A stretch of DNA of 43,645 nucleotides from an uncultured Bacteroidales bacterium (lineage in GTDB: Bacteria > Bacteroidota > Bacteroidia > Bacteroidales > UBA932): positions 1 through 43,645 of the forward strand of contig CAJOMY010000001.1 of the NCBI GenBank assembly GCA_905235775.1. The letters run 5' to 3'. Positions 11,740 through 38,800 of this stretch are shown here, one piece after another (the first letter of the stretch is position 1; every line of letters begins with the position of its first letter). The notes beneath the pieces are model-generated. The model was given only the letters and a program-made list of their open reading frames with translations. It was not told the origin of the DNA and made no database searches. A program made the translations under genes and the position numbers.

Positions 11740-12122
11740 AGCGCGAGCTGATCGAGAATGTCGACTATTTCCTCCACTATGTTCAGTTTCCGAACCGCGC
11801 CAATCCCTCCATGGTCTTCCCGAATGACGACGGGACCTTCGATATCTACCTGAACACCCTCTTTGACAAGGACTTTCTGCGCCGGAAGCTGGAGCACGAG
11901 CTGGAGCATCTCTACGACGAGCATTTCTATGTTGATCTTCCCATCGAGACGATCGAGCGCCAGGCGGACGGGGAATCCGTCCTTGCCGCCGTCGTCTCCC
12001 CTCCCCCCGGCAAGATCGCGCACTTCCCCTCCGAGGCGGCCTTCGCCCACTGGGTGAAGACCGTCGCCGCCCAGACCGGAACGGATCTCCATCTCTCAGA
12101 TATGAGAAAGGAGATAGTATGA
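11736..12122 (+). CDS. ImmA/IrrE-like Zn metallopeptidase (anti-repressor)
   Basis: NDDGTFDIYLN..LEHELEH (HExxH), overlapping the cI stop codon. Confidence 0.8.
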   Translation: MKRELIENVDYFLHYVQFPNRANPSMVFPNDDGTFDIYLNTLFDKDFLRRKLEHELEHLYDEHFYVDLPIETIERQADGESVLAAVVSPPPGKIAHFPSEAAFAHWVKTVAAQTGTDLHLSDMRKEIV

Positions 12123-12418
12123 AAAAAGTCATCGCTGTTTTGATCGTTTTTGCTTCGCTTTTCCTCTGCTCCTGTGGATTCGACACGTCCATTTATGACA
12201 AGGCTTATAATGAGGGATATGAGGATGGTTATGAGGCTGGAAGGTGTGCAGACAGGGAAGACGCAGATGATGAATCATGGGATAAAATGAATACCGCGGC
12301 TGAATGGATAGGAAAAGCGATCGCCATGATGGACGATTTCGACACCGGAGACTTTACCGTGGATGACATCTATGACGCACTGTGTAAAGCGGATAACGCA
12401 TTGAAGGGTAGTGTATGA
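12119..12418 (+). CDS. Acidic lipoprotein
   Basis: MKK, hydrophobic signal and lipobox LCSC; YNEGYEDGYEAG repeat. Confidence 0.75.
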   Translation: MKKVIAVLIVFASLFLCSCGFDTSIYDKAYNEGYEDGYEAGRCADREDADDESWDKMNTAAEWIGKAIAMMDDFDTGDFTVDDIYDALCKADNALKGSV

Positions 12419-12789
12419 AAGAGAAACTGATATGGGCCGCTGAGCATTGGTTCCTTTTGCCGGTCGCTGCTTTTGCCGTGATGGTTATCCTCTCAATAGC
12501 TGGTGTGCGCGGACCGGCTCCAGAAGCGGAAGATTCCTATGCCGGCATAGATATAGTTTGGCAGGAAACGCCGCGGTCAACTTGCTTCTCTTACGTCGGA
12601 TACGATGAAGATAACGAAGTTCTGGCTCTTGTGTTCCGCGATAATGATTCGAGAATATATCTGTATGCGGAGTTCCCGGCAGCTGAATATCATGCCTTTA
12701 TGAGCGCAGATTCTCTTGGAGGCTATTACAATAAACATATCAAAGGGGAATATCCATCAGAGAGAATCGATGATATAGACGGGTGGTGA
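12415..12789 (+). CDS. Membrane-anchored KTSC-domain protein
   Basis: N-terminal TM, then STCFSYVGYD..L.LVF....Y.Y..FP...Y..FMSADSLGGYYNKHIKGEY. Confidence 0.8.
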   Translation: MKEKLIWAAEHWFLLPVAAFAVMVILSIAGVRGPAPEAEDSYAGIDIVWQETPRSTCFSYVGYDEDNEVLALVFRDNDSRIYLYAEFPAAEYHAFMSADSLGGYYNKHIKGEYPSERIDDIDGW

Positions 12790-12883
12790 TGAAATGATCT
12801 GCCGCAACTGTGTGTATTTTGGCAAGGTGCTGCTGCATCAGCGCCTGCCGCAGCCGGAGTATATGTAAGGGAGGACAATATTT

Positions 12884-13309
12884 ATGAAAGAAAAGCCGGA
12901 AGTAGGAAAGGCCATTTTGTTTTCTCTGGTAGGAATTGTTGCTTTTATTCTTTGCGAGATCGTTGTCACTCTGGTCATTGGATTATTATTTGCGCTTTTT
13001 CTTCACATTCCCATTCTGAAAAATGTTGTTAGTTTCATTTTCAATATTCGCGGCGACACTCCGGACTTTTTAGCTCTTTTAATTGGAATCGTTGCCGCAT
13101 ACAACGCAGTAGTTTGGATGATATCTCGATTCTGCAATAGCAAAGCGACGGAGAGCCTGTCGCTGGAAATATGCGGTATAACCCTTTTCGTTTTTCATGT
13201 CTTATTCTTCTTCGTTAATCTTATTGGTCATAACGGGATAACTGCAAATATTTTAACTTTGATCGCAGCTTTTATTATGGCAATGCGAGGCGTATCAATG
13301 AAGCAATGA
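12884..13309 (+). CDS. Multi-pass membrane protein (AT-rich gene)
   Basis: About four hydrophobic helices; overlaps the integrase start. Confidence 0.75.
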   Translation: MKEKPEVGKAILFSLVGIVAFILCEIVVTLVIGLLFALFLHIPILKNVVSFIFNIRGDTPDFLALLIGIVAAYNAVVWMISRFCNSKATESLSLEICGITLFVFHVLFFFVNLIGHNGITANILTLIAAFIMAMRGVSMKQ

Positions 13310-14424
13310 TCTGTAAATACTGTCACAAAGACGGGCTGCCGGACCGCGCTCTCTTCTGTCCCTGGTGTGGGGAGAAACAGATCCGCGCCCGCAAGAAAAA
13401 GGAAGAGCCCAAATACCCCAAATTTCGCGTTCTGGCGGACGGGACGCTGCTGGGGCAGGTGATGATTGACGGTCGGCGGGAAACGATCAAGGCGGCTGAC
13501 GAGGCCAAATACCGGGCCAAAATCGACGGGCTGCGCACCGGCGTGATGGAATTGAAAGCGCACCCGGAAAAGCGGCCTCTTGAGAAGGTCCTCCGGGCCT
13601 ATATCGACAAGAACGATGAAGTCCTCTCCCCCGCCACGATCCGCGGCTATGAAGTGATATACAAAAACCGCTTCAAGTCCTACATGAAAAAGCCCGTCGG
13701 CGAAATCGACTATCAGAAGATGATAAACGCTGAGGCGAAGATCGTCGCGCCAAAGACGCTTAAGAACAGCTGGGCGCTTGTGACCGCTGCGTTCCGCGAT
13801 GCCAAGATCCCGGTCCCGGACGTCAACCTTCCCCAGGTGCCGGAGAGTGACGAGGACTTTCTGGACTATGAGCAGATCCAGGTGTTTCTTGAGGCCATCC
13901 GCGGCGACACCTGCGAGGTCGCCGCGCTGCTGCTGCTTCACAGCCTGCGCATGTCGGAAGTCCTGAAGCTGGACGCCGCCGAGGATATCAAGGACGGCAT
14001 GATCTATGTTCGCGGCGCTGTCGTCCCCGATAAGAACAACAAGCTCGTCGAGAAGAAGACAAACAAAAACAGGACCTCTCGAAGAGAGATCCCGATCATG
14101 ATTCCGCGCCTGATGGAGATCCTTCCGACAGAGGGGAAGGCCGTCACCGTCTGGTCATCCACCGTCAGCAAGCATATCATCAAGGCGTGCGTGCGTGCCG
14201 GCCTGCCGTCCTGTTCTCCCCACGACCTGCGCCGCTCCTTTGCGTCGCTGGCCTATCATCTGAAATGGTCGGAGCGCACCGTGCAGGAGATCGGCGGCTG
14301 GAACGACCTGAACACCGTGCATAAAATCTATGTCAAGCTGTCCCGCAAAGACGTAAACGCCGACGTAGAAAAGATGAAAAATTACTACCAAATTACTACC
14401 ACTTCTTCAAGCCAAGCAAAATAA
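13306..14424 (+). CDS. int: Tyrosine integrase with N-terminal zinc ribbon
   Basis: CKYC..CPWCG; SLRMSE (R), HDLRRSFAS (HxxR), GGW, KIYVKL (Y). Confidence 0.93.
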   Translation: MICKYCHKDGLPDRALFCPWCGEKQIRARKKKEEPKYPKFRVLADGTLLGQVMIDGRRETIKAADEAKYRAKIDGLRTGVMELKAHPEKRPLEKVLRAYIDKNDEVLSPATIRGYEVIYKNRFKSYMKKPVGEIDYQKMINAEAKIVAPKTLKNSWALVTAAFRDAKIPVPDVNLPQVPESDEDFLDYEQIQVFLEAIRGDTCEVAALLLLHSLRMSEVLKLDAAEDIKDGMIYVRGAVVPDKNNKLVEKKTNKNRTSRREIPIMIPRLMEILPTEGKAVTVWSSTVSKHIIKACVRAGLPSCSPHDLRRSFASLAYHLKWSERTVQEIGGWNDLNTVHKIYVKLSRKDVNADVEKMKNYYQITTTSSSQAK

Positions 14425-14640
14425 CAGCGTTTTTACGCACATGGAAAAGGGTTCAAGTCCCTTCTCCCGCACCAGATAAACAGTCCGATTTGGTTATCAA
14501 ATCGGACTGTTTCTTTCATTTTTCAGCATCTTTCCCATTGAAAAAGTTCGTTTCCGTTTTGGCCGTAGTAATGGTGTATAGCCCGGAAAACACACCAGAA
14601 AAGCCATCTAAACACGCAAATTTACTACTAAATTACTACG
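14379..14640. other. attP: tRNA 3'-end core (14447-14474) flanked by ATTACTAC-type arm sites
   Basis: Core AAGGGTTCAAGTCCCTTCTCCCGCACCA. Arms: AAATTACTACC at 14379 and 14390, inverted GTAGTAAT at 14565, TTACTAC at 14622, AAATTACTACG at 14630. Confidence 0.88.
14478..14520 (+). terminator. Intrinsic terminator after the att core
   Basis: AAACAGTCCGATTTG-gttat-CAAATCGGACTGTTT followed by a T-rich run. Confidence 0.85.
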
Positions 14641-14651
14641 GCTTTTGAAGC

Positions 14652-14682
14652 AAAAAGGAGGCGGTTTCCCGCCTCCCCTTTT
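14652..14682. terminator. Bidirectional terminator closing the cassette
   Basis: AAAAA-GGAGGCGG-tttc-CCGCCTCC-cc-TTTT. Confidence 0.75.
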
Positions 14683-14683
14683 G

Positions 14684-15100
14684 TTAACCGCGGAGCTCCC
14701 GCAGGACCTGACCGACAACACGGCGCGTGTAATCGTCGCCGGTTCCCTTCAGCTCCTCGAGCTTGCGAATGGCGTCTTCGCTGGGACCATCCGCCCATGC
14801 GCGGCCACGCTCGACGGCGAATCTGCCGCGCCCATCACGGCGCTCAGATCCTTCCTCGCCCATGTAGCCGGACATGCCGCCCTCATAGGAGCGCCCGCTC
14901 ATGCCGTTGGCATAGCTGCGGCGCGACATGCGGTTGCTGTACTCTTCCTCCTCGGATGCCTCGATCACCTTGCACAGGTTTTTGGTCGCGTGAGCAAGGG
15001 TGTCGATCATGGCGAGAGAGGACGCATTGATCTCGCCCTTCTTGGCGAAGCCCTCCAGCTCCTCCATGAGCTGTTTCTTGAGTTCATAAAGAGCGTGCAT
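14684..15100 (-). CDS. Cassette helical protein with an RRDGRGRF motif
   Basis: Start MHALYELKK with RBS AAGGAGG. Confidence 0.8.
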   Translation of the reverse strand: MHALYELKKQLMEELEGFAKKGEINASSLAMIDTLAHATKNLCKVIEASEEEEYSNRMSRRSYANGMSGRSYEGGMSGYMGEEGSERRDGRGRFAVERGRAWADGPSEDAIRKLEELKGTGDDYTRRVVGQVLRELRG

Positions 15101-15119
15101 TTTGAAATCCTCCTTCCTT

Positions 15120-15611
15120 TCAGCTTCTGATGCCAGCAAAGTCAAAGACCAGGTTGGCATTGAGCACATTGATAGGCTGCGCGCTGATGTTCCTGACAGA
15201 GACCGAGCTGCAGCGGCAGATCCACGGCACCGACACGATGATGTCAGCGCCGACGTTATCGCCGGTAACGTCGGAGACGAGAGGCACCGTCACAGTCATA
15301 ATGCTGCTCGGGTCGATCTCCCCGTCGATGACAATTGCGAGGCTGATCGGCTCCACCGTCCCGGCTGGGTCGGTGGGCACGGAGATGTTGCAATGGAAAG
15401 CGCACTCGTAGTTTGCAGAGGGGAGCGGCCCGCAGCAGCACGACCTACGGAAGCTGTAGCCCATTGTCGTGGGAGACGCCAGGCGAAACAGCCCGCTTTC
15501 GTCCCGGTGGTAGATCAGGCCTCGATTGCAGGGGACAGGAGATTCCGTGAAGATGACGCTGCCGTTGGGCTGCACCACTTGGAGTGCATTGGCACTGTAC
15601 TCAGCAGCCAT
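15120..15611 (-). CDS. Cassette beta-rich, Cys-rich protein (possibly BclA C-terminal / C1q-like jelly roll)
   Basis: MAAEYSANALQVV..PCNRGLIYHRDESG..SVSVRNIS..NANL; the fold is inferred only. Confidence 0.7.
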   Translation of the reverse strand: MAAEYSANALQVVQPNGSVIFTESPVPCNRGLIYHRDESGLFRLASPTTMGYSFRRSCCCGPLPSANYECAFHCNISVPTDPAGTVEPISLAIVIDGEIDPSSIMTVTVPLVSDVTGDNVGADIIVSVPWICRCSSVSVRNISAQPINVLNANLVFDFAGIRS

Positions 15612-15625
15612 GACGTCACCTCCTA

Positions 15626-16462
15626 TCAACCGATGAAGCCGTTATTGCCACAACCGCACCCGTAGCCCTGATTGCAGCAGCTCGGGTTCTGTACGATATA
15701 GGCCGGGATCGGTGCAGGATTGAGGATTGCGGTCTGACGCGCGTTGTCGGCCAGGATCTGCGCGGTCTGCGCAGTCTGAGAGGCCGCCAGGTTCGCCATG
15801 TTGAGCTGCGTGCGCAGGTTGTCGTTCTCCCGACGCTCGGCCTGGAGCTCCTGATCGCACAGCTTGTCGAGGATGCGCTGCGTGTTCGCGGTCTGATTGG
15901 TCAGCAGATCGCGGACGCCGTTGGACAGGGCCTCGCGGTCAGCGCAGTTCTCGCTCTGGACGAGCGCGGAGAGGTTGGCCGTGGCGAGACGGTTCTCGCA
16001 GCAGCAGTCGGCGAACTTGCTCTGCATCGCAAAGCTGTTCTGCATGTCGGCAATCTGGTTCGCATAGAGCTGCTGAGAGATCGCGTTCTGAGCGCCGGAG
16101 ATCGAGGAATTGACGCCGGCAAAGCCGCCGCACAGGCTGTTCTGAACGTCGCCGAAGCCGCTGGTAATGGCGTTCTGCAGGTTACCGAACGCGGTCTGCG
16201 TGGCGAGCTGATTCACAGCAGCGTCGGTGTTGGCATTGACGCCGGACATGATGCTCTGCTGGCCGTTGAGCAGCCAGGGGAAATCATAGCCGAGCATGCC
16301 GCCGCCGAAGCCGCCCATGCCCCAGCCGCCGCCGAAGGCAAGCAGAAGCAGGAGAATCCACCATCCATCACCGCCGAAGCCGTTGTTTCCGTAGCCGCCG
16401 GCATAAGCAGGTGCCACAGGCATATACATGCCGGTGCCGGAGCCGTTTTCAGTGAGAGACAT
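15626..16462 (-). CDS. Cassette Gly-rich TM / coiled-coil protein with CCC motif
   Basis: GFGGDGWWILLLLLAFGGGWG, Gln/Asn-rich heptads, ADCCCENR, PAPIPAY, Cys-rich tail. Confidence 0.85.
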   Translation of the reverse strand: MSLTENGSGTGMYMPVAPAYAGGYGNNGFGGDGWWILLLLLAFGGGWGMGGFGGGMLGYDFPWLLNGQQSIMSGVNANTDAAVNQLATQTAFGNLQNAITSGFGDVQNSLCGGFAGVNSSISGAQNAISQQLYANQIADMQNSFAMQSKFADCCCENRLATANLSALVQSENCADREALSNGVRDLLTNQTANTQRILDKLCDQELQAERRENDNLRTQLNMANLAASQTAQTAQILADNARQTAILNPAPIPAYIVQNPSCCNQGYGCGCGNNGFIG

Positions 16463-16522
16463 ATTCGTTTTCCTTTCAAAATATATTTATGCCAACCGCC
16501 TGTGCACCGACGGGGAGCATAC

Positions 16523-16747
16523 CTACCGCCTCATGCGGCCCATCATCTGCATAGCCTGCTGATATCTGGCCTGCGGGACCTGCCCGCTCTGCATGAGGTG
16601 CTGGACGATCTGTTGGGGATTGGTGAGATTTGCCGGGACATTCAGCCCGGCCTGCTGAAGAACAGCAGCGGGATTTTGCTTGAGCTGCGAAAGCATCTGC
16701 ATCGGATTCATCTGTGTCTGCTGCCCGAGCTGCTCAAAAAGGCTCAT
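16523..16747 (-). CDS. Cassette Gln/Met-rich small protein
   Basis: NPQQIVQHLMQSGQV; coupled. Confidence 0.8.
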   Translation of the reverse strand: MSLFEQLGQQTQMNPMQMLSQLKQNPAAVLQQAGLNVPANLTNPQQIVQHLMQSGQVPQARYQQAMQMMGRMRR

Positions 16748-17145
16748 TCCTCCACCGCCTCCTTCTTCGTCCTGCGCGGCGTCAGAGCGCTCAGACGCTC
16801 CTCCAACTCCTCGCGCGTCACATAGACCGCCGGATCGAACGCCGGGGCCTGCGGGGCAGGCGGGCGCTTGTCGTAGATATCCAGCGTGTAGCCGTTCGCC
16901 TGCGCGGTCTTGATGATGATCGCGCTCTCATCCTTGAGAATGAACATCTGGGATGTTCCCGCGCCCACGTTTGACTGTCGGATCTCGTCGATGCTGCCAG
17001 CCTGGATGATATCTGCGTGGATCGTCGGGAGCGTCATCTGCGGTGCCGGCTGCATGGGCTGCTGCATCTGATAGGCCTGCTGCATCGGCTGGATGTAAGA
17101 GGGGTAGCTGCCGGGAACATACGGGTTAAAATTCGGCATGGTCAT
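16744..17145 (-). CDS. Cassette protein with Q/P-rich N-terminus and YVTREEL motif
   Basis: ATGA overlaps on both sides. Confidence 0.8.
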   Translation of the reverse strand: MTMPNFNPYVPGSYPSYIQPMQQAYQMQQPMQPAPQMTLPTIHADIIQAGSIDEIRQSNVGAGTSQMFILKDESAIIIKTAQANGYTLDIYDKRPPAPQAPAFDPAVYVTREELEERLSALTPRRTKKEAVEE

Positions 17146-17522
17146 TCATCCTTTCTGTACCAGAAGTAAAAAATGGTTTCGTCGCCACAGTCGAAAATAT
17201 CGAACCAGTCGCCGTCGATGACCGTGACCACGTGCCGGTCCATCCCAAGCAGGAAGGTCCCCTTGGGATTGTCCCGGCTGAAATCCCGGACGGTGTAACA
17301 GTCCGGGCACGTTTCCGGGAGGGCTTTGCGATAGAAACCGTTTTGCCGGAGGACAGAGCCCCACACGCTGTTGATCTCCATCATGTCGCCCATCTGCATG
17401 CCGGCCAGCGCGATAATCAGATAGGTGGTCTCCCAGTCCTTCCCGATGGCGAGCGATACCGCCCGCACCGCGCAGTCTGTCACGCGCCTTCCTACCGGGT
17501 TCGGGTTAAATTCACGAAACAT
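17142..17522 (-). CDS. Small papain-like cysteine peptidase candidate
   Basis: NPVGRRVTDCAVRA (Cys), HVVTVIDG (His), DIFD (Asp); probable start MFREFNP. Confidence 0.65.
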   Translation of the reverse strand: MFREFNPNPVGRRVTDCAVRAVSLAIGKDWETTYLIIALAGMQMGDMMEINSVWGSVLRQNGFYRKALPETCPDCYTVRDFSRDNPKGTFLLGMDRHVVTVIDGDWFDIFDCGDETIFYFWYRKDE

Positions 17523-17580
17523 CGTCCTCGCCCTCTTTCCAGAAGAGATCATCGTCGAGGACCCACTCGTTGTCGTACAT
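17512..17580 (-). CDS. 22 aa acidic leader peptide MYDNEWVLDDDLFWKEGEDDVS
   Basis: Manual translation with RBS GAAGGTG; overlaps the peptidase start. Confidence 0.5.
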   Translation of the reverse strand: MYDNEWVLDDDLFWKEGEDDVS

Positions 17581-17599
17581 ATCAGCACCTTCTTTCTGG

Positions 17600-17680
17600 A
17601 AAAAGTGTATAAAAAAAGCTGCTGTCAGGCCATGAAGCCAAACAGCAGCTTTTCAGCATCTTTCATGAAGTTTTCCGGAA
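17600..17680 (-). promoter_or_regulatory. Cassette control region: phased repeats, 12 bp inverted repeat and -10 TACACT
   Basis: Minus strand AAAACTTCATG/AAAGATGCTG/AAAAGCTGCTG/TTTGGCTTCATG; inverted repeat AAAAGCTGCTGT..ACAGCAGCTTTT at 17614-17653. Confidence 0.6.
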
Positions 17681-17682
17681 AT

Positions 17683-17710
17683 AAAAAAAGCGCCCCACGC
17701 GGGGGCGCTT
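17683..17710 (-). terminator. Intrinsic terminator after the HTH gene
   Basis: AGCGCCCC..GGGGCGCT stem followed by a T7 run on the minus strand. Confidence 0.8.
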
Positions 17711-17951
17711 AAGAAATCATGTGTGAAAATACGATCGTGCTGGTCTCCTTGATGATATCGGAACACCGTCTCGGCGTGATATCAAATTGCTCTGACAGCG
17801 CTTCAATCGGTATGTGATCCAGCATGCGGGTCAGGAAGATCTGCCGGTTCCGGTCGTGATGCACATACTGATTCGCCAGCTCGATCAATTCATCCGTCGA
17901 GTGTTGCTTGATCAGCGCTTGGATCTCCTTGTACGAATAGATTTCCTCCAT
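17709..17951 (-). CDS. Small HTH regulator (sigma70 region 4 / Mor-like)
   Basis: RNRQIFLTRMLDHIPIEALSEQFDITPRRCSDII. Confidence 0.75.
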   Translation of the reverse strand: MEEIYSYKEIQALIKQHSTDELIELANQYVHHDRNRQIFLTRMLDHIPIEALSEQFDITPRRCSDIIKETSTIVFSHMIS

Positions 17952-18195
17952 CCTGTACTCCCTCTTCTGTGCGGTTCTGGAAGAAGTCCATCCAAGTGTT
18001 GTTCATATCCTTATAGGCATACAGGAAGCAGCACACCGTGATGATGAGCGTGACGCAGACCGTAATCAACGCGGTCAGAAGTCTTTTGTTGCTACTGTCC
18101 ATTTTATCAAGCGCCTCTTTACTGGATCTCTGCAGCTTATCGCAGACGGCCTCATGGATATAAAAAGGGACCTCTTCATACTTTTTTTCTTCCAT
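17890..18195 (-). CDS. Single-TM membrane protein paired with the HTH regulator
   Basis: VPFYIHE..NKRLLTALITVCVTLIITVCCFLYAY; has its own promoter. Confidence 0.75.
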   Translation of the reverse strand: MEEKKYEEVPFYIHEAVCDKLQRSSKEALDKMDSSNKRLLTALITVCVTLIITVCCFLYAYKDMNNTWMDFFQNRTEEGVQDGGNLFVQGDPSADQATLDG

Positions 18196-18223
18196 GCCTG
18201 TGATCTCCTTTTCTTTTTTGGAG

Positions 18224-18252
18224 ATTATACCACCCTATCCAGTTGTTTTCAA
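18224..18252 (-). promoter_or_regulatory. SigmaA promoter TTGAAA-N17-TATAAT (TGn extended) for the TM + HTH genes
   Basis: Read from the reverse complement; overlaps the holin stop codon. Confidence 0.8.
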
Positions 18253-18458
18253 GGCTCCTTGTCCTTGTTGTACTGCGCCGTGCTGATTCCGAGCAGAGCG
18301 CCCAACAGCGTGCAGATGACGGTGGCGGACTTGGCGATCTCATCGGCGAGAGGCCAGCCCCAGATGCCTGCGAATCCGACATAGGCCGTCGCCAGCGCCG
18401 GGATGACGATCATGGTGACCCATTTGAGAACATCGTACACTTTGTCATTGAGTTTCAT
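18249..18458 (-). CDS. Holin (Dp-1 type)
   Basis: MKLNDKVYDVLKW..IPALAT.Y..LGALLGISTAQY; two TMs. Confidence 0.9.
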   Translation of the reverse strand: MKLNDKVYDVLKWVTMIVIPALATAYVGFAGIWGWPLADEIAKSATVICTLLGALLGISTAQYNKDKEP

Positions 18459-18470
18459 TTTTTCTCCTCC

Positions 18471-18749
18471 TCATGTGTTGTGCGCCTTTTCATTCAGGTG
18501 CTTCTCTATTTTGGTGATTGCTTCGTGCACGGGCCCGTCGGCTCCCTGCTCGGCGAGGCCCTTCAGGCAGGCCAGTACTCCATAGGTCAGAATGGCCTGT
18601 TCGGACTGGATGTCCTGAATAATACGATCCTGCTCTTTCTGTCTTTTCACGAAATCGTATCCCCTATTATAAATTGCGATCAAAGCTCCGATTGCCGCCA
18701 GAAAAGCGGCAAACGAAATGATCGTGTTGGGAGTGATCGTCACGCTCAT
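18471..18749 (-). CDS. Holin-like / lysis-associated membrane protein
   Basis: N-terminal TM; lies between endolysin and holin. Confidence 0.7.
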   Translation of the reverse strand: MSVTITPNTIISFAAFLAAIGALIAIYNRGYDFVKRQKEQDRIIQDIQSEQAILTYGVLACLKGLAEQGADGPVHEAITKIEKHLNEKAHNT

Positions 18750-19501: not shown

Positions 19502-19596
19502 TCCTCACTCCTCCCCGCTACAACACAGAGGCAGGTAAACACCACACCGATGCCCGTACATAACGGGCAAATCCACAAGAGATGCAAAGGACTCAT
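19498..19596 (-). CDS. 32 aa hydrophobic Cys-rich peptide
   Basis: MSPLHLLWICPLCTGIGVVFTCLCVVAGRSEE with ATGA overlaps on both sides. Confidence 0.55.
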   Translation of the reverse strand: MSPLHLLWICPLCTGIGVVFTCLCVVAGRSEE

Positions 19597-20012
19597 GCCA
19601 CTACCTCCACATAAATCCCCACCAGATCAGCCAGCGGGTTATACACGGGGATTCCCGTACTGCGGATGCAGATGTACGTCACGCCGTCTTGTGAATAATA
19701 CTTGCCCTCAAACAGCTCCATGTTGCCGTCATAGGGGATGGGATTATCAGGCGTGTCACCTTCGCCGGGTTTTTCCACCTCCGCAAACAGCGCGGGAACA
19801 TTCGGCGGTTCCCATCCCTCTTGTGATGTGTGCGCCAGTCTGACACGGTACAGCTTGTTTTCATAACGGATGCGCTGATCGACTTCGTACCAGATGCCAG
19901 CAACCCACGCGGGGAACAGCTCAACAGCGTCAAGCGCGTCATCGTCTGTGAGGGACACAGCGGCTTTTTCAATGATGGGTCTAAGCGCCCTCGCTTTTTC
20001 CTGCGGTGTCAT
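19593..20012 (-). CDS. CBM5/12-like (ChtBD3) carbohydrate-binding protein
   Basis: W..G..Y..D.RIRYENKLYRV..AHTSQ.GWEP...PALF. Confidence 0.75.
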   Translation of the reverse strand: MTPQEKARALRPIIEKAAVSLTDDDALDAVELFPAWVAGIWYEVDQRIRYENKLYRVRLAHTSQEGWEPPNVPALFAEVEKPGEGDTPDNPIPYDGNMELFEGKYYSQDGVTYICIRSTGIPVYNPLADLVGIYVEVVA

Positions 20013-20209
20013 GTTGCACCTCCTACAAGGATGTCGTAGGCTTCGGCTTTGGCTTTAATTGTAGATTCATCTGGGATGTCTTCGTCGTTGATCTCGTGCC
20101 AGTTGTTTATGCTGTCATGTTTGCCAAGATACACCAGCTTGCTATAGGTTTCCCCGTTCGTAAGAGACTTGCCCTCATCAGCAGTCAGCCTGTTTCCATC
20201 AACAATCAT
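20009..20209 (-). CDS. Small tail-associated hypothetical protein
   Basis: LTADEGKSLTNGE..VYLGK.DS..NW.EI. Confidence 0.7.
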   Translation of the reverse strand: MIVDGNRLTADEGKSLTNGETYSKLVYLGKHDSINNWHEINDEDIPDESTIKAKAEAYDILVGGAT

Positions 20210-21579
20210 GCTACCGTCCACCCCTTCTCTGTTGCTATCGCAATTTCAGCATTTGTAAGTTTAGCCTGTAAAGTTGCTCCAAGCGTAATCGTTTGCGTTG
20301 CTGTTACGGGCTGTAATGCATTTAGCAGACCAACAAGACTATCATGATCAAGAGATGTCGGTGACACGGAAAATGATGTGTAGATTTTTGTGCCATTTGT
20401 TACAAGAGACGTTAAGCGGGAACAACTTGTAAACATATTAGTAGTATTTGTTGCACTTTGCATGTCCCACCCGGATATGTTAAGTACATTCAATAAAACA
20501 CACATATAAAATGCATTTGCAAAATTCGTAACGGAGGAAACGTCTATCATGCTTAAATCCAGTGTAAGTAAATTTACTGCGCCACTAAATGCGCTAGATA
20601 TATTCGTCGCGTCAGGCACAGACTCTGGGAAAACGAGACTCTCGATCTGCGGGAGTCTTGCGAAAGAGCTGTAGTCCATGCTTTGTCTCGTTAACACAAA
20701 GTCGCTTAAGTTGATATACTGGAGGCTCTTAGCGTACGAGTAAAAGCTCGATATACTCGGGCTAGTGGCAGTCTCATAATCTAGCAATGTTACAGATTGG
20801 ATAAACGGCCCAAAGCTTCCATAGTAGGCGGTGTTATAGTCCATAAAAGCTACATTTCCAGGGCGTCCATAAACTTCAACACAACTGTCAATAACACCTC
20901 GATCCGTCTGAAATGTGATTCTTCCACTAGAAACATTATTCAGATTAAGCTCAACCGCCACATAATCGTCATCAGATGGAAAAAATGTCTCCAGAAAATT
21001 AGGAGAACTCGTAGACCGTGTCAACGTGCGGATAGGCGTAAATTCGCCATTTTCTATCCGTCCAATTCTAGCAATAGTACCAGCAGGAGCCGTATATATA
21101 ACCAATCCTACTGACAAGATTCCGCTTTTGTTGGGTCTTGTGTCATATGTTAAATAAACGCAACAATTTGTCGGATCGTTTTCCATATGCAAGGATTCGT
21201 AGTTTGGCCAATTTGATGGACGTGTCCAGTATCCATGCATAACAGGTTGGTCGCCCGACACATTGACCGTGATCTCCGCGTTCGCATACGCCGCCACGTC
21301 TTCGGTGGTCGTGCCGTTCTCGGTGATGGAGATTTGTTTCGTGCCTGTCGGAGCAGGAGTCGGCACGTTGACCTGTGCAGAAGCGAATCCGGCCACATTA
21401 TGCGTACCGTTCGTAATGATCTGTTTCGTGCCGGATGGTTTTAAAGCTCTTGCGGCTGCGGCCATGCCGGACGGGAAAGAAAGCTGCTCAGATCCGCCGC
21501 TGGCATATCGGATACCGTCAGCGACGGTTCCGAGATCGCTGTCGAGCTGTGTACTGTCTACCAGTTTGTCAAGAGCCAT
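20206..21579 (-). CDS. Adhesin / receptor-binding protein with BspA/DUF285-like leucine-rich repeats
   Basis: LDLSMIDVSSVTNFANAF, LNISGWDMQSATNTTNMF, ends IATEKGWTVA; AT-rich middle. Confidence 0.75.
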   Translation of the reverse strand: MALDKLVDSTQLDSDLGTVADGIRYASGGSEQLSFPSGMAAAARALKPSGTKQIITNGTHNVAGFASAQVNVPTPAPTGTKQISITENGTTTEDVAAYANAEITVNVSGDQPVMHGYWTRPSNWPNYESLHMENDPTNCCVYLTYDTRPNKSGILSVGLVIYTAPAGTIARIGRIENGEFTPIRTLTRSTSSPNFLETFFPSDDDYVAVELNLNNVSSGRITFQTDRGVIDSCVEVYGRPGNVAFMDYNTAYYGSFGPFIQSVTLLDYETATSPSISSFYSYAKSLQYINLSDFVLTRQSMDYSSFARLPQIESLVFPESVPDATNISSAFSGAVNLLTLDLSMIDVSSVTNFANAFYMCVLLNVLNISGWDMQSATNTTNMFTSCSRLTSLVTNGTKIYTSFSVSPTSLDHDSLVGLLNALQPVTATQTITLGATLQAKLTNAEIAIATEKGWTVA

Positions 21580-29856: not shown

Positions 29857-32800
29857 TTAGTTTCGCCACGGTGCCTCGTAAATCGTCTTTTCAGACCATC
29901 CGTTTTTGCGGTACAGAGCGTCTTTGACGGCGTTGCTTACGGGCAGCGCGTCGATCACGCGCATAACCTCAGCCTTTTTCGATCCGGAATCCGTCTTGCC
30001 GTCGCCGTCAAGATCTGTCCCCTTGCACTGAGCATATCCGGTCTTGTATGTGGCGTATTGGTCAATCGTCAGCCCTGTCTCGCGCCAGCTGCCATCTCCA
30101 TCACCGTAATAGGCCTTGACGGTTTCCGTTCCATAGCGATCCACCTGTGAAGCGTAATCTCTCAGTGTGATGCCGGCCGTGTTCTTTACTCTGTCGTAGA
30201 AGTATTTGGCCTGAGTAACAGAAAGATCGTACTGCTCATACTCTGCGCCGTGCTGCCGGATGAAGCTCCTTGTCTCTCTCCACTCGGCCACGGTCTCATT
30301 CGCTTCGTCAACGGTCAGTCCGGCGTAATAACTGAGCAGCCTTCTGGCTTCTGCGTCGCTGAGCATTTTCTCTCCGAGGATCTCCTGCTCTTCCGCGCTC
30401 AGCTCATCGCCGAAGTACGCTTTCCGCACAAAGGTCTTGATCTCGGATTGTGCCGTCTTTTCTTTGACGCCGTGGCTTGTCAGATCAGTCATAGCACTCT
30501 TGAACGCCTTCTGGTCGCCGGCCAGAGCGGCGCGCTTGACCGCGGTGTATTTCCCGCTGTCGCCTGTCTCCCAGCTCTGTACGGTAAAGAAAGCATCATT
30601 TTGGCTTACTCCTGTTTTCTCCAGCAGGGCCGCGACCTGTTCCGCTGTACGCTTCCCGTCCTCAAAGTCTTTTTTCAACTGGCTTTTAACCGCTGAGAAA
30701 GCGGCTTTCTCACTCTCAAATGCCTCTGTTGCTTTCTGAACGGCAGCGTCGTCACCGCTCTCGAGAGCTCGGATCAGCACGTCGGTGCTCTGCGCCTTCG
30801 TGCGCTCATACCCGGCCTCAAAGCGTCCGAATTCTCCGTTGCGGATGTCCTCGATGTGGTAGAGCAGCGCGTCCTTGATTTTGATTGCGTTGTTTGCCGG
30901 GATGCCCAGATACTGGCACAGGGAGAGGCCGACTTTGGAAAGCTGCTTCTCAAACTTCGCCTTGCTCTTCTCGTCGTTGAGATCGTACTTTGTGCTCGCC
31001 AGCGTCACAAGATTGTCTATCAGATCGTTGACGCTGTCCACGCCGCTGAGTGACAAACCGTACCAGTTGCCGTTGCCTGTAGCCGCCATGAGGATGGAGT
31101 GGAGTTCGCTTCCACCCAGGAACATGCCGGCCATCGCGTCGATATAGTTGTCCAGGACCCGCAGGCTGACAGATTCCGCCGTCAGCTCGCCGTCATCGTC
31201 GTCGCGGTAGGCCTTCATGTTGTGCAGCAGCGCGTCGGCCAGGAGCTTGAACCCGACATAAACCGCCGCCTGCGTGAGCTGCGAGGAGACCGCAGAGACG
31301 AGTTGTGTCCGAGCCTCTGTCACGTCAGCCTTTGTTACCCCGTTCCGCTTGTTGGCAAAGTCTGCGTGGGCCTTCTGATAGCCGCCTGCCGCGTCGAAAA
31401 GAATGTTGAAGTTCTGAAGGCGCTGCGTCATGAACATCGTCAGGGCCCTCACCAGCTCGTTCGGATCACGCAGGATCTGGGGTCGCTGCATGGTGGTGTA
31501 GTTGGGCTGCGTTTTTTCCACGACGTCGTTGAACTTTTCCGCTACGGCCTCATAGTAGGCGTCAGAGCCTTTTTCGAGATTTGGCTTGTTATCCTGCACC
31601 CAGTATTCCGCCGCGTACCACAGACGCCCGACGGTCGCGCCGTCAACCGCCTGGATCCATCCCGTCGCCCATCGCGCCTTTTTCCAGACCCTCGAGCTGA
31701 GGCGCTGGCTGTTTTTGATATCGCCAAGCTCGACCGAGGAATATCCCTGCATGCGATACCACAGCAGAGGGGAGTATTTTGCGATCAGCTCGGCGTCCGC
31801 GCGGGAGATCATCCTGCCGGACTTTCCTCCGCGGAAGAACGCCTTCGTCAGCGCTTTTGAGCCTACCTCCGCCGCGGCTGTCGGGTAGGAGGCCATCTGC
31901 GCCAGCGCGACACGCACGTTGAGCGTCAGTGTTGTCTGTGCCAGATTGCCGCGCAGCCGTCCCATAAGGCGGTTGAGCCCCAGGGAATCGTCGCCGACGC
32001 CCCGGCTCCCGGTCAGGTCCGCGATCAGGTTCTCCACGTACTGGCCGCCCTCTTTGCCGAAGGTCGCGTTCACGGCGTTCTTGAGCGAATCGCTGTAGCC
32101 GGAGCCCATTTTGTTCCAGACCTTGTTGAAGTTCCGGATGGCCGGCATGAGCCCGGAATACTGTGCGACGCGCTGGATCTGATTGTTCACAACAGAGGAG
32201 ATATCCAGCGCAAGCGAGGGGTTCCCGGACTTGACGCGCTCCTTCATGAAGCCCGCGTTCTCGAGGTTCATGTCTCTCGTGACGGCCTCAAAGCTGCTCG
32301 CGAGGAAATTCGGGTCGCTCGTGATGGGGTAATAATTCTCCACCTGCGCCTTCTCGATGCCGTAAACCTCCATCGTCGTCTCGTTCAGATACCGCTTGCT
32401 GTCCGTGTCCATGAGCTGCTGTGTCGCCCGGATCCACTTCCTGTCAAAGTCCGTGAGCTGCCGCTCGATGTTTGCTTTCACCGTGTCGGCGTAAGTCTCG
32501 CCGGAAAGCTCGAGCTCTTCGATCCGTTCCTGGATCTCGTCGGCAAGGGCCTCGTCGCCTGCGCTTTTTGCCTCGCGCTGCTCGTGGTAGAGCTCGCTCA
32601 ATTCGCTCGCGATACCGACGGCCCTCTGCGTCCCGATGCCGAAGCCGCCTTTGCCGCTGTAGAAGTCGCTGAGATTCGGGATCGTCTTTCCGCCGCGGAT
32701 AAAATGCCTCCGGTTGTCCTCGTTCAGCAGATCCATATAGATCCCGGCTGCGATGCCGTGCGTCACGGGGATCGCGTTCCCGCTCTCGTCCTTGAGACCG

Positions 32801-35800
32801 ATATCGATCAGCTTTTTTTGATCCACATTCCCGAGATAGTTCAGGCCGGAGAAATCCCGCATCGCTTTTGAATCGTTGACCAGCTCCGCAAACGGGAGGC
32901 TGAGCTTCATCGTGATTTCTGTCTGCTTGAGCTGCCCGTCGTTCAGCATCCGGCACATACTCTCCCACGCCGAGTTCTTCTTGAACCCTGCAAAGCGTCG
33001 GAAGGCGACGTCCGGGCGCAGATGCGCCGGAATGTAGTGCTGTTTGGCCCAGCCCTTTTGCGCTTTCGGGATATCCCGCGTCTCCTGCGTCATGGTCTGC
33101 GCGACCTCAAAGGCATTTCTCTCCTCGTTCCCGATTCGGATCTTGACGGCGTCGTCAATGATATGCGTGAGCGCTTTCAGGGTGTTGTAGACCGCTTCGA
33201 GCTGCTCTGTGTTCATCTCATACAGCTTCGTGTCCCCGATCTTTACGCTCAGGTCCCGCAGCATCTCCGCGGCCACGTCGTCAAAGACGGCTGCGTACGT
33301 CGGGTTCTGCCGGTAGCTGTCATACATCGTGCGCAGCTGCTGGATCTTCTGGGCAAAGGCGTCTCCGCCCCGGCCGCTGTCAAAGTCGATCATGTCCAGC
33401 ACGTCGACCGTGAGCCGCACAAACTCCGTCGGCACGTATTTCTTTTCGCTCGGCTTTGCGAGCCGCCGGTTCAGATCGTCGATAAGATCTCGGATCTTTC
33501 TCCGGACGCCGGTGTTATTGCGCCGCTCTCTCGCCCGCTTTTCGATCTCCTTGTAGTGCTTCTTGAGCTCGGCGATCTGCCGCGCCGCGCGCTCCCGTTC
33601 CTTTGCCTGGATCTCGGTCGCCCGCGCCGAGCCCTCGGCCCGAAGCTGTGCAGCCCGATAGTCCGCCTCGGTGCGCAGCGTGGTATACCGGCTCTCGGCC
33701 TTGTCCAGTGCGACGGAGAGATCGTAGATCGTGCGGTAGAGGCTCGCCGCCTCTTTCGCGTCGAGCTTCTTTTCGGCTTTGAGCTGCTGGATCTGCTCCT
33801 GCAGCGCCTTCGTGCGGGCCTTCTGCTTATCGGCGGTCGTGGGCTCGTTCGCCCGCAGCACGCCGTCCATCGCGTCCATCGTGATCCTGTTCGCCAGGTC
33901 CTCGGCCGCCTCGCCCATATACTGCTCGAAGGGATTGACCTCCATCGGCCGGCTGAGATCCATGACCTCGGCGATGCGGCGGAGCTGTTCGCCCTCATTG
34001 GCCATATCGGGGAAGTAGCTCTCTCCGTATTCGCCCTGCAGGTCGTTGTAAAACTGATCGACGCTTCGATAGCCCTCGCGGCTCTCCCGGCTCTTGCTCT
34101 CGCGCTGTGCCAGGATGAAATTCCCGAAGTTCCGCTTGCGAAAGCTCTCAAAATCCTCGTTCAGCTCTCCGATAAAGTCGCTGTCCAGGCTGAGCTTGCT
34201 GCCGCGGACGGTCTCCGCGATGCTGCGCAGGGTCTCGTTCCCCTCGTCTACCGTCTGGCTCGCCGAGGCGAGGATCTCCACCGCGACGCTGCGCGCCCTG
34301 GTCTTGAGATTGTTCTCGTCCAGCTCGGCCGCCGGGGTCTGGAGGATGTAATCGCCCACGGCCTTGATCTTCTCGGCCACGCTCTGGGTGTCGGCCCTGC
34401 TGCCATATTCCCGGATGAGGCTGCGCGCCAGCTTTTTCGCGTCGCTCTGCCGCGTCTCCGGCGTCTTGGTGATCTGCATTTTCTTCTGCAGGGCCTCGAT
34501 GGTCTTGCCCTGCTTGGCAGAGAGCTTTTTCATCTCCGCCACGGTCTCGGTCAGGATGGCGTTCTCGTTCTGGAGCCGCGCATAGGCCAGCTCCCGCCCG
34601 TTCCGCTCTGCCGCCGTGTCGTCGCTCGTATCGTCCCAGCGCTGGAAAAATGCACCGATACCAGCCTCCCGTACTTCTCCCGTCTGAAAATAATACTTGA
34701 TATCATTCACAATCCGGTCGGGGCGGATCGTTCCCTCGTATTCAAGCGTTCCGATGGTATTCCCACGGCTGTCGGTCAAGTCCACATTGAAGTATTCCTC
34801 GTCAGCCACATTGCGGGCAAAGGCGCGGATTGCTCTGTACTGCTCTTCCGTTGGTTCGGTGCTGCTGATAATATCAAGGCCTGGTGCCTCCGCCATAATG
34901 CGGATGTTGCCGTATCCCATGAAACGCACCATAGCCTCGGAGCCTTGCGTTGTTGCAAAGATTTGGCCGATTGCCCGGTGATCTTCACCGCGCGTGCCGA
35001 AGTGCCTGCCCTTCTCGCCGGAGAAGTTGAGCATTTTCCCGTTGGGCACGATGTACCCGGCGTCGTAGTAATACGGGGTATAGCCAAAGGTCTTGACAGC
35101 CTGCTTTCCGAAATACTCCGCCTCCGGCAGTCCTGACTTTTCAATGTCTCGCTGTTCTTCGGCCTCCATTTCTGCGTCTCTCGCCTTGTCGTATGCAGCA
35201 TTGAGAATGTTGACGCGGCGATCAGCCTCTTTCTTTTGGTTGTAAAGGTCATCGTAGCCGCTCTCTCGGGCCCACTTTGCAAAAGCCTTCAGCTCTCTGT
35301 CTCCGCCCTGAATGGCCTTTTGCAGCCGTTCCTGATACTCGTCGTTGCGGTCGCGCAGCTGGCGCTGAAGATTTCTCTGCTGCTCTCGTTCGCTTTGCAG
35401 TTCGTCAAGCAGCTCGCTGGCAGTTCTGTTGCCGACAACAGTGTTGTATTCCTCATCGTCCCACATCTGAAGCTGTGTCCGCGATTCTGCACCAGCCGGA
35501 GCGTCATTTTCCTTGACATCCGCGGTGACTGCTGCTACAATGTTTTCAGAATAAGGCGCTGTGTCTCCGTAATTCGACTGTCCGCCCTGGTCTTTCAGGC
35601 CGGCGTCGTGGGAGAGGGCGCCTTTTTTGTTTTCAAAAATGGCATGAATAAGGCTCCTTGTATCACGCTCAGTTGTTTTTACAGAAAAAATAACTGGAAC
35701 ATATTTTCCTTCGATATTGGCAACGGCCAAAAAAGAATCCCATTCTGTATTTCCGTTGCTCTTTGCTGAACTCTCGCTATGCACATCATGCTTGGAACTG

Positions 35801-38800
35801 TAGATGTACTCAGCGTTATCAATCAGCGATGCAACCTCGGAGAAAAGAGCCCCTCGCTGCAGGTCGGCAAGTCCTCCTGCTGAGTGATTTCTTCCATCGC
35901 TTGTCAGATACGCTGTCATCGTTCCGCCATCGAAGAAGAAATGAACGGAACGGTCGCCGAGGGTATCTTTAAGAATCCCCTTAATTGCCTCACGCGCTTT
36001 TTTCAGATTTCCCCAATCTGTTTTTCCGCTTAATCTCTTAAGCGTTTCTTCTGGGATAGTCACAACTTTCCCGCGGTCAACAAGGCTTCTGGTTTTGCTG
36101 ACTTCTGCCCTTTTTCTTGCCTCTGTGTTTCTGTAGTCGATAAAAGCTCGATTGATATCTTTCCGGCTCCACGCCTGATACTGCACGCCGCCCTCCGGGG
36201 CGGTGTTTTCTTTGCCCTGCGCCTGCCGCACCGTCTGCTCGGCGTTGTAGTTCTCCACAGCCGCCGCGATTCCGTTGGCCCAGCGCTCGGTGATGCCCTC
36301 GATCTCGTCCATCACAGCGCGCACCGGGGCATAGATCGCCCGGTTCTCGTCGAAGCTCATGCCCTCGAACGCCGCGCGGATCTTCTCCGTGATATCGTCC
36401 AGCACGTCGGCCACCTTCTGTGCCAGGGTCATGTTTTCCCTCGCCATGCGCTGCACGGCCCTGTCGTCGGTGAGCATCGTCTGGCAGGCGTTGGCCACCA
36501 GCTCGTCCGTGAGCTCTTCATAGCTCTTTCCGGGCTCCCAGCGCCGCTGCTGCTGTACCAGCCGGTCAAACTCCGCCGGGCTCTTCTTGAGCACGGCTTT
36601 GATCACGTAGTCCTTGAGCTCCTGATATTCACTCGGCGCATATTCCTGCATGAAGTGCGTCAGCTCGTGGGAGAGGGACGCCGCCGCCAGGCTCTTGCGC
36701 GTCTCCTGCGTCATGCCGGAGTTGATATTGATGTACACCGTGCCGCCGCGGACATAGGCGCCGCCCAGGTTCGTCGGGCCGTCGAAGAACACATAGTCGA
36801 TGTTGATAAGATCGGCCAGCCGCTCCACCATCGCCACGATGTTTTTCTGCTGTCTGCTGAGGGAATCCCGGTCGATCCCCTTGTAATCGGTCCCGTCGAT
36901 ATTCCCGCCGTCAAAGCTGACGCTGCCCTTCTTCCGCTTGACGGGCTTGCTGCCCTCCAGCTCCTTCTTGCGGGCCTCCAGCGCCTGCACATCCTTCTGC
37001 AGCTGCACGGCCTTGTCCATATTGGCTTTGGCCTCGTCGAAGGCGCGCTCGTATTCCTCGGAGTTCTGGAATTCCGGGTCCGCCTTGACGGCCGCCTCCA
37101 GCGCGTTCCGCTGGCTCTCGAACAGCTTCACGGTCTCCGCGCCGAGCCGGTTTGCCTCGCGGATCTGCTTCTCCACCTCGGCGAGTGCCTGGGCGTCCGC
37201 TTCGCTCGCCTGCTGCAGGCTTGCCGCCTGCGTGCGGATCTCGGCCCTCCGCGCGTCCAGGCGCTTGACAGCCTCTTTCCGCTCCGTGCGCAGCTGCGCG
37301 CCGATCTCCTGCGCCTTTTCGATCTGGGCGTCCGTCAGCGTGGAGATCATGCTCTCCGCCGGGATGCCGCCCTCCTGGCTCCGGATATCCGTTCCCGTCG
37401 CGGCATAGCGTTCCGCCGCCTCGCTCATGCCGGCGGCGAAGCGTTTTACATCCTGCCCGCTCTCATATACCGCTGCGGCTGCCTCCGCATGGCTCCCCAG
37501 CGCCGCGAGAGAGGACGTCAGAGCGGCTTTCCCTTTCTCCGTGCTCGCGTCCACGCTGACCGGCGCGGAGGTCGCCACGCCGGCGCCGAGCTGCCAGGCG
37601 CGCCGGAACTGCGCCTCGCTCAGTCTGCCCTTGTAGGCGCTCGCCTTCCTTGCCTCCTGCATGGTATATTTCCCGGTCTGCCCCATCTGGTAGGCCTCAA
37701 GCGCCGCCGCGGCGTAGGTCCTTCCATCGGTCCCGGCCTCATATCCCTCGGACAGCACCCGGATATCCCCGTCGGAGAGCTCCATCCTCGCCGCCCTTGC
37801 GCTGCGTTCGATCATGTTCCCCATGACCTGCGTGCGATTCTCGACCTTTACCTTCTCCGTCTGCTCGACGGCGCTCTCAGCCGCGGCCTGCTCGTTCCCG
37901 GTGCGCTGCATCCGGTAGAGATTGGTCTCGACCTCGCGGGCGTTGGGATTGCCCTCTGTGCTCTGGGATACGTTCGTGAGATACATGGCCACCTGCATGA
38001 GGGCTTCTTCGCTGTTTTCCGATAGCGTCACGCCGGTTAGCTCGGTGAACTTCTCCTTCAAACTGTTGTTTTCAGCGATGCGCTGCGCCGCCTTATAGGT
38101 CGCCACATCCACGGCCAGATTGCGGGCTCCTGCGCTGTACTCGACCTGTGCCACGGCGCCGCCGCCCATACCGGCAAGGCCTCCGAGAAGGCCATCATAG
38201 AGGAGCTGCCCGTCGCCCCACACATCAACGAGGAAATCGCTGAGCTGCTGCATGAACTCCTTGTCCTCGCCGCGCCCGGTCGCCTCTCCGATTCCGAGGA
38301 TGCGGTCCATAAGCGGGTTGAGCACGTCAGCGATCATTTCCTCCAGCGCCTCGCCCGTGAAGGCGTTTCCCAGGGTGCCGAGTAATTCGCTTCCGGTCTT
38401 GCTTGCGATCCACTTGTCCACCTTGTTCAAAAACGCCTCGCCATAGCCGGTGCCGCGCCAGGAACCGCCGACGCCGCTGAGCATTTCTGTCGCGATTTCC
38501 ACGCCGCTGCGAGCAAACGCGGTTTCCGCCTGCTTTACAACATTTTCTCCCCGGTTTTCTGCTTCCTGCGCGCCGGACCCAAACACGCGGATGCCCATCG
38601 GGACAAGGCCCATTCCTCCGCTGAGCATGCGGTCAAGAACCTGCTCCACGCCTGTCTTTTCGAGATCCAGAACCAGTCTGCCGAGCCAGTTCGTTCCCTC
38701 GCGCATGCTGTTGAAGGCCTCAGAGGTCATTCCGCTCCCGGCGTTCTGCGCGAAGTTTGCCATCTGAAAGATGGAATTTTCTTCGATCTTTCCACCGCTC

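Follow-up and report, generated by a model that had tools for sequence, protein, structure and literature searches.

The window analysed here is a 43,645-nucleotide stretch from an uncultured Bacteroidales bacterium (contig CAJOMY010000001.1, assembly GCA_905235775.1, positions 1 to 43,645 of the forward strand), a single metagenome-assembly contig whose terminal repeat marks it as a circular phage genome. Between the holin gene (18249–18458) and an intact phage attachment site (attP) lie nine open reading frames (ORFs), here called g1 to g9, in a cassette that is real, widespread and without description in the sources searched. All nine are on the minus strand, each with a ribosome-binding site, at the positions assigned to them in an earlier model-generated note (the sequence-only reading), and the CCC, PAPIPAY and RRDGRGRF motifs, the promoter and both terminators described there are likewise in place. 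The proposal of a self-contained, separately regulated and undescribed operon made in that reading is supported, and the cassette has its own promoter and terminators and a conserved gene order.

Transcription could begin at P1 (18224–18252, minus strand), a sigma-A-type promoter (TTGAAA-17-TG-TATAAT, 11 of 12 matches and an extended TG) that overlaps the holin stop codon. It precedes g1 (17890–18195), a single-pass membrane protein that matches the profile of transmembrane (TM) genes found upstream of g2 elsewhere (E 2.6e-17), and g2 (17709–17951), a stand-alone helix-turn-helix (HTH) protein resembling sigma-70 region 4; an intrinsic-terminator-like hairpin, T1 (17680–17710, minus strand), closes the pair. 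With this overlap, and with no terminator detected in the stretch from holin to g1, g1 and g2 could also be read from the late transcript. Beyond T1 lies P2 (17604–17675, minus strand), a putative activator-dependent promoter, followed by g3 (17512–17580), g4 (17142–17522), g5 (16744–17145), g6 (16523–16747), g7 (15626–16462), g8 (15120–15611) and g9 (14684–15100), and the operon is closed by T2 (14652–14681, no strand assigned), a hairpin between A/T runs. P1 is the sole promoter-like site between 14300 and 18600, where shuffled sequences average 2.1, and six terminator-like hairpins were observed against 4.5 in shuffles, those of T1 and T2 spanning 17688–17710 and 14657–14676; neither count by itself stands out from the shuffles, and the case rests on conservation.

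That conservation is extensive. Profiles were built from 80 IMG/VR loci, and with them the order g4–g9 was found to be kept in 55 of the 57 training loci with enough flank, in 34 of 55 GTDB loci and in 27 of 36 metagenome loci, collections between which contigs may recur. Synteny of the cassette is far beyond chance, and the context was that of a phage in all loci examined. Of the 8,000 clusters scored at 90% identity, 7,999 matched the g7 profile; at the 50% level the number of matching clusters was 2,263 (E ≤ 0.001). A complete cassette is present in Butyrivibrio phage Ceridwen, which its authors consider virulent while mentioning an antirepressor-like gene (PMC7372960, passages covered), and another stands at the end of an integrated prophage in Vescimonas fastidiosa. 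Integrated copies occur in Clostridia genomes, and of six genome loci retrieved, the five that were scanned all had phage markers. The proteins belong to families listed as of unknown function (PHROG 3754, 21718, 16490, 9288 and 20016, and DUF7841). No curated-cutoff match to Pfam or NCBIfam was obtained for g1, g2 or g4–g9, searches of PDB sequences with six alignments gave weak matches only (best E 0.003–0.5, none for g8), an Rfam scan of 14300–18500 returned three chance-level matches, and none of 12 proteins matched the 2023 PADLOC library at E 0.01. For g7 and g5 the ESM Atlas gave hypothetical viral clusters only. No description of the operon was found in the literature searched, which excluded most subscription papers and all supplements; the covered passages of the BASEL paper (PMC8594841) contain nothing on the module genes, and a passage of a gut-virome preprint deals with a different domain.

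The hallmark of the cassette is g7, a 278-residue protein (phrog_16490 and phrog_9288) with a Gly-rich acidic N-terminus carrying a Trp/Leu run, a predicted parallel coiled coil (residues ∼77–212) with CCCE, a Pro-rich motif and a CxC tail. Its first 70 residues are 30% Gly. A Trp-led hydrophobic run of ∼10 residues is found in 139 of 144 g7 proteins, CCC in 134, the C-terminal CxC in 129 and P[IV]P[AS]x near the C-terminus in 72; there are ∼11 Cys per protein, the C-termini are rich in Cys, Gly and Tyr, and CCC is kept in all 10 of the distant homologues inspected. With a copy number of three assumed, g7 was modelled as a parallel, in-register coiled coil of ∼135 residues (77–212) with many contacts spaced 7+4, at a trimer score of 0.66 (best control 0.00), a predicted local distance difference test score (pLDDT) of at least 67 and at least 51% of contacts shared between runs. 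In calibration, 20 of 30 solved pairs attained this mark, as did 1 of 23 single chains. The model supports self-association and predicts a trimeric coiled-coil rod ∼20 nm long, and together with the conserved cysteines it favors the oligomeric, Cys-rich coiled coil that the sequence-only reading had proposed. The Fourier periodicity is not clean (3.76 and 3.95). Membrane insertion, also suggested there, is conjectural: the hydrophobic run spans only ∼10 residues, the median best 19-mer hydropathy is 1.46, and a Kyte–Doolittle 19-residue window above 1.9, of TM strength, occurs in just 5 of the 144. Weak Pox_A_type_inc matches in 6 of the 144 are probably generic coiled-coil matches. A predicted trimeric coiled coil behind an N-terminal hydrophobic peptide, modelled in three copies, may recall class I viral fusion proteins, an identity rejected for want of a C-terminal transmembrane anchor.

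The neighboring g8 (phrog_20016) is 163 residues long and consists entirely of a head, a stand-alone jelly roll of the C1q/TNF type resembling ExsF and the C-terminal domain (CTD) of BclA, modelled at a pLDDT of 87.6. Its best VIA match is the F-BclA CTD (Z 16.9, root-mean-square deviation [rmsd] 1.7 Å, 124 aligned), with the BclA head (Z 16.3), EDA-A1 (14.7) and ExsFA (14.2) behind it and C1q domains close; knobs of phage fibers match at Z 10–12.7, and Foldseek gave a match at E 4e-8. Three cysteines (28, 132 and 134) are near-invariant. At the level of predicted structure, these matches support a fold of the spore-surface type in g8. ExsF is a trimer whose clefts bind a Pro-rich leader peptide (PMC12357932, in the parts covered). 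The likeness to the Bacillus exosporium proteins ExsF/BxpB, BclA-CTD and F-BclA (PDB 7R1M, 8D02, 1WCK and 9H38; Z 14–17) extends to ExsF standing alone as a stalkless head, as g8 does, to a loose resemblance between the g7 Pro-rich motif and the exosporium leader that docks on ExsF, and to an abundance of Cys in both systems. However, identity is 9–14%, the collagen Gly-X-Y stalk is lacking (no collagen-family match in 144 g7 or 81 g8 proteins), neither the leader nor BclA is matched by profile (at E 0.02, TIGR03720 was listed for none of the 144 g7 proteins), the shaft is predicted to be a coiled coil, and the module is phage-encoded, its g7 occurring also in phages whose hosts do not sporulate. 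As a phage-borne module with no collagen, it was rejected as a member of the BclA/ExsF system. Phage fibers with TNF-like knobs (Sf6 tail needle, 3RWN; PRD1 P5, 1YQ5; cyanophage A-1(L), 8KE9) share the arrangement predicted for the module, a trimeric shaft with a TNF-like head, but the module differs in placing shaft and head in separate genes, in having its own regulator and an enzyme, and in its spread over unrelated virion types.

A peptidase candidate with a Cys-His-Asp triad had been proposed for g4, a 126-residue papain/C39-like protein (phrog_3754), and this assignment gains from a papain-like model (pLDDT 94.6) and from a triad (Cys17, His97 and Asp108) that is invariant in 66 of 66 sequences, alongside a conserved CxxC. 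The top VIA rows are papain-like with a middling Z (best 7.1, rmsd 3.2 Å, 98 aligned), staphopain and C39 double-glycine peptidases being tied at ∼7, and the best Foldseek E is 0.04. The fold and triad of clan CA enzymes (C39, staphopain, Josephin) are thus shared by the predicted structure, but at 6–14% identity and with no ABC transporter at hand, and the chemistry could be cross-linking rather than cutting; none of the 66 members matched Pfam C39, and no exporter is encoded in the cassette. Two of the 66 have a signal-peptide-like N-terminus.

The remaining products are small or of low complexity. The 22-residue acidic peptide g3, which overlaps the start of g4, is present in the window as the sequence-only reading stated, but it varies among relatives and is not a constant part of the cassette: by eye, clear relatives are found in two loci (L001 and L043) and weaker ones in two more (L003 and L024), and other loci have other small ORFs or none. 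In several loci the position between P2 and g4 is taken by small ORF families that start with MxDIS or carry RLxRCG. The Tyr/Pro/Gln-rich g5 (phrog_21718), a putative scaffold or adaptor, has its bias in the N-terminus, followed by a small conserved domain and a helical C-terminus; g6 is a small Gln/Asn/Met-rich protein, likely helical; and g9 has likely helical ends flanking a Tyr/Gly/Ser/Arg middle, with RDxxGR[YF] in 50 of 66 homologues. Low complexity in g5, g6 and g9 is of the Gln/Asn/Tyr or Arg/Gly/Ser/Tyr kind. A simple screen found no signal-peptide-like start in g5–g9.

Of 63 g2 loci, 43 have a g1-like TM gene ahead of g2, against none of 22 loci with a second HTH clade, g2b; g1 is a putative sensor or anti-activator of g2. 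Nine of 10 g2 homologues scanned gave sub-cutoff matches to region 4 of sigma-70/extracytoplasmic function (ECF) factors (best E 1.3e-7). P2 comprises repeats with an 11-bp period, CTTCA, a weak −35 (17632–17627), a 17-nt spacer and the −10 TACACT (17609–17604), and is embedded in a terminator-like hairpin with arms at 17614–17630 and 17637–17653. A T-run followed by a −10-like hexamer lies upstream of g4 in 59 of 109 loci, compared with 10.6 in shuffles. The motif TTCAT(T/C/G)G is exactly 21 nt from a −10-like hexamer in 15 of 19 cases, a distance that puts the weak −35 at 17-nt spacing with the 11-bp-period repeats ahead of it; this reading of the −35 and repeats comes from 17 rows chosen on the motif, with 3 of the 19 loci dropped and the window added, and among held-out loci the spacing was 21 nt in 2 of 4 cases only. 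The TTCAT motif sits in the loop of the hairpin, where 9 of 11 pairs have double-sided changes, and pairing holds in 85% of cells versus 36–48% when the alignment is slid. The promoter repeat also switches with the HTH clade: TGTA[CT]A/CGTA[CT]A occurs in 15 of 22 g2b loci versus 10 of 63 with g2, and for TTCATnG the corresponding figures are 0 of 22 and 15 of 63, counts in which kin are not independent; a TGATAC motif did not separate the clades. The HTH protein is likely the cognate regulator, probably an activator, of a promoter insulated from read-through, and the linkage of the TM/HTH pair to the operon drawn in the sequence-only reading is upheld by both the g1–g2 association and the P2 motif. 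A 15-nt stretch of a P2 repeat (17650–17664) recurs exactly in the attP region (14519–14533; E 0.37 against the assembly) and may mark a second g2 site or have arisen by chance.

Expression in the lysogen, as first supposed, is not upheld as a general rule, given that g7 homologues occur in virulent phages and that the enteric version was found in none of 5,426 E. coli genomes. In some loci g2b stands directly after the holin, and in some Firmicutes-type loci (L065 and L080) no promoter region separates the core from the gene ahead of it, be that the holin or another, g4 abutting the holin in L065. Together with the P1/holin overlap and the lack of a terminator before g1, these arrangements make late timing at least as plausible as lysogenic expression. 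The −10 of P2 (TAnnnT) is of the housekeeping type.

Homologues of g7 extend well beyond the complete cassette. They occur with other partner genes in a C. perfringens phage, a Bacteroides phage, crAss-like Suoliviridae and a Methanomassiliicoccales virus, and in 227 records that derive mainly from enterobacterial phages, including virulent phages of E. coli, Salmonella, Yersinia and Edwardsiella. Intact copies are carried by E. coli K-12 phages such as CAjan. Profile comparison across lineages linked only g7 (probability 97–98%), with g5 and g6 also present in the clostridial phage. The enteric four-gene version follows a tail fiber or terL gene or, in a Yersinia phage, faces away from its neighbors; the usual position of the module is the end of a late unit, after holin, tail fiber or terL. 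Among plasmids, enteric g7 was found in no record and the g7 of the window in two, one of them an integrated prophage end. Phage 9NA, T5-like phages and KurtStettler have broken or partly deleted forms of the module, in keeping with a trait that plaque growth does not require. Almost all of the named hosts and sources come from gut, rumen or sewage, and the GTDB host names of g7 contigs are possibly mis-binned. A sample of 399 genomes from the class of a Butyrivibrio genome (G301) gave 22 matches, only 8 of them with E ≤ 1e-9, two further genomes being unscored; the other 14 were dropped as short N-terminal Gly-rich matches only. A 28-row g7 tree has a weak backbone, and no direction of transfer is drawn from it. 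Low correlations between the distance matrices of core genes (0.08–0.35) are explained by shared descent and were not used as evidence.

There is some ground for viewing the cassette as a very-late phage module that builds a disulfide-cross-linked fiber or mesh around released virions, an analogue of the exosporium or of an occlusion matrix; we put the probability of this reading at about one in three, and every functional step that it involves is one that we infer. The predicted rod and trimeric head, the Cys enzyme, the low-complexity helpers, the absence of export signals and the switch at the end of the late genes best fit a structure that would be assembled in the cytoplasm and set free at lysis. 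The unrelated virion types, frequent decay and gut bias suggest that its role lies neither inside the infected cell nor in plaque growth. Under this scheme g2, made from P1 or by late read-through and possibly held by the membrane protein g1, would bind the 11-bp repeats and turn on P2. The products, having no signal peptides, would accumulate in the cytoplasm, where the low-complexity g5, g6 and g9 could nucleate or chaperone assembly, g7 rods could join through their Gly/Trp N-termini, and the Pro-rich C-terminal motif of g7 may dock on g8 trimers by analogy with the exosporium leader on ExsF. Subunits would be trimmed or cross-linked by g4, exposure to oxygen after lysis would lock the structure through the ∼11 Cys of each g7, and the mesh, set free at lysis, would attach to progeny virions, gather them into clusters and protect them between hosts. 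In insect viruses and poxviruses, occlusion and inclusion bodies are very-late, separately promoted, dispensable matrices that protect virions between hosts; the likeness to the module is in proposed role only, with no homology shown. More tentative still is the wider proposition that one g7-centered module is common to the tailed phages that infect gut Firmicutes, Bacteroidetes, Enterobacterales and archaea and would enclose their progeny in an oxygen-locked, exosporium-like coat or occlusion matrix, a survival form for transit between animal hosts under its own very-late activator.

Several observations weigh against the mesh. P1 is a near-consensus host promoter and g1 resembles a membrane sensor, which fits lysogen expression. 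The three-copy modelling of g7 is unlike the cases of the calibration set, coiled coils can pass by likeness, and only three copies were modelled. C1q/TNF heads are equally common on ordinary phage fibers (the Sf6 knob, PRD1 P5 and cyanophage fibers). Neither g8 nor g4 was detected in the enteric, Bacteroidetes or archaeal versions, so that only g7 is universal; the Bacteroides phage and the C. perfringens phage have the module surrounded by early or replication genes; and the gut bias may partly reflect the choice of samples in databases.

The TNF-like knobs among the g8 matches and the predicted trimeric g7 shaft would also suit an accessory spike or whisker attached to the virion, with g8 as a glycan- or mucus-binding knob and the other proteins as assembly factors. 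The module adjoins lateral tail-fiber genes in Drexlerviridae, Seuratvirus and T5-like phages, and GenBank labels crAss homologues 'spike protein/glycoprotein' or 'viral fiber' on a basis not seen. In KurtStettler (bas22_0024, L085:5834–7366) a tail-fiber-chaperone-like stretch is joined in frame to the body of a g7 homologue, a join that favors a spike and is itself probably a deletion scar. Set against this are the occurrence of the module in unrelated virion types, partner genes that track host lineage rather than virion type, the separate promoter and regulator, the orientation in the Yersinia phage and, as weak evidence, the lack of any g7–g8 fusion among 7,989 longer candidates; a spike is thus a doubtful explanation, if one to be kept in view. 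We consider it unlikely that g4 cleaves after Gly-Gly to free the hydrophobic N-terminus of g7 for a membrane effector, be it a pore, a fusion-like spike, a superinfection block or a lysis modulator. The Gly-rich terminus with its Trp-led run, the C39 peptidases tied for the top g4 fold match and the sensor-like g1 speak for such an effector, but the run is short and weakly hydrophobic, there is no signal peptide, C-terminal anchor, evident immunity gene or PADLOC match, g4 was not detected in enteric or Bacteroidetes versions, and its fold does not favor C39 over staphopain or Josephin.

Condensation of g7 and the low-complexity proteins into an intracellular body that shields phage DNA or assembly from defenses, or that buffers metal or oxidative stress, would account for the missing export signals, for g5, g6 and g9 and for the many cysteines, and it is compatible with the early-gene setting of the module in two phages. 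An ORF that reads like a ferritin-type four-helix protein, with no Pfam match, follows the C. perfringens phage module (L086:7433–7960) and would accord with such a body. The usual place of the module at the end of late units is at odds with it, and C1q/TNF heads and Cys patterns of the disulfide type are usually extracellular, so that this explanation appears quite improbable. Lysogenic conversion, in which a prophage adds an exosporium-like layer or appendage to the surface of the host spore or cell, draws on the exosporium proteins as closest g8 folds, on the strength of P1 and on the integrated copies in Clostridia genomes. We regard it as the least probable of these explanations: g7 is found in virulent Enterobacterales phages and in Bacteroidetes and archaeal viruses, whose hosts form no endospores, the 144 g7 proteins have no collagen region or exosporium-leader match, and the P2 −10 is of the housekeeping type. 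The spore-modifier role raised in the sequence-only reading is not supported, given this occurrence in virulent phages whose hosts do not sporulate.

The mesh reading bears on the means by which strictly anaerobic gut phages persist and pass from one host to the next, and no protective matrix made by a tailed phage was found in the literature searched. Since the g7 family comprises thousands of clusters and has members in crAss-like, rumen, T1-like, Seuratvirus and T5-like phages, one experiment could annotate a large share of unknown gut-phage genes, and the intact copies in Ceridwen and in E. coli K-12 phages such as CAjan make the question directly testable. Should one of the rival explanations hold instead, the cassette would still amount to a phage machine that is separately regulated, has not been described and contains a conserved activator–promoter pair.

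Variants of the module show some further features. Enteric versions carry a short palindrome, GTAA(C)-N6-GTTAC, just after the −10-like hexamer and ∼50–60 nt before the g7-like start, which may be a 5′ RNA hairpin or an operator; it was found by pattern in 5 of 8 loci (L084, L089, L172, L087 and L214), its stems are altered by eye in the other three (L212, L213 and L215), and TTTAC tandem repeats lie upstream in 4 of the 8. In the Butyrivibrio genome a single contig has g7 at two separate loci (G301:C22, 111424–112143 and 192294–193058). In Suoliviridae (L083 and L090) the reading frames of the module genes continue through TAG, following NCBI table 15, and g7 is preceded by the gene for a DUF7841 member with an Arg/Gly-rich tail.

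Elsewhere the window encodes portal, major head, internal virion and tail proteins, RecT/RecE, an endolysin, a holin of the Dp-1 type and a tyrosine integrase (13306–14424), which adjoins the attP region (14370–14644, no strand assigned), where the 3′ half of a tRNA-Leu-like sequence (∼14447–14472) lies between arm-type repeats. Neither an exact attB match nor a Spo0A over cutoff was found in the window's own assembly, and g7 was absent from 300 genomes of the window's phylum, so that the link of the phage to this host is unproven and was not used as evidence. The cassette was matched without differences on one contig of one DNA run, possibly the source data. Three plus-strand genes precede the integrase (12119–13309), among them a KTSC-domain protein with a hydrophobic N-terminus and a very hydrophobic protein of 141 residues, and are possible cargo expressed in lysogeny. 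Just upstream of the lysis genes (19593–21579) are a CBM5/12 carbohydrate-binding protein and a repeat-rich protein of 457 residues, and among the virion genes is a 3,395-residue ORF (29857–40044) that belongs to phrog_22978, a family of unknown function.

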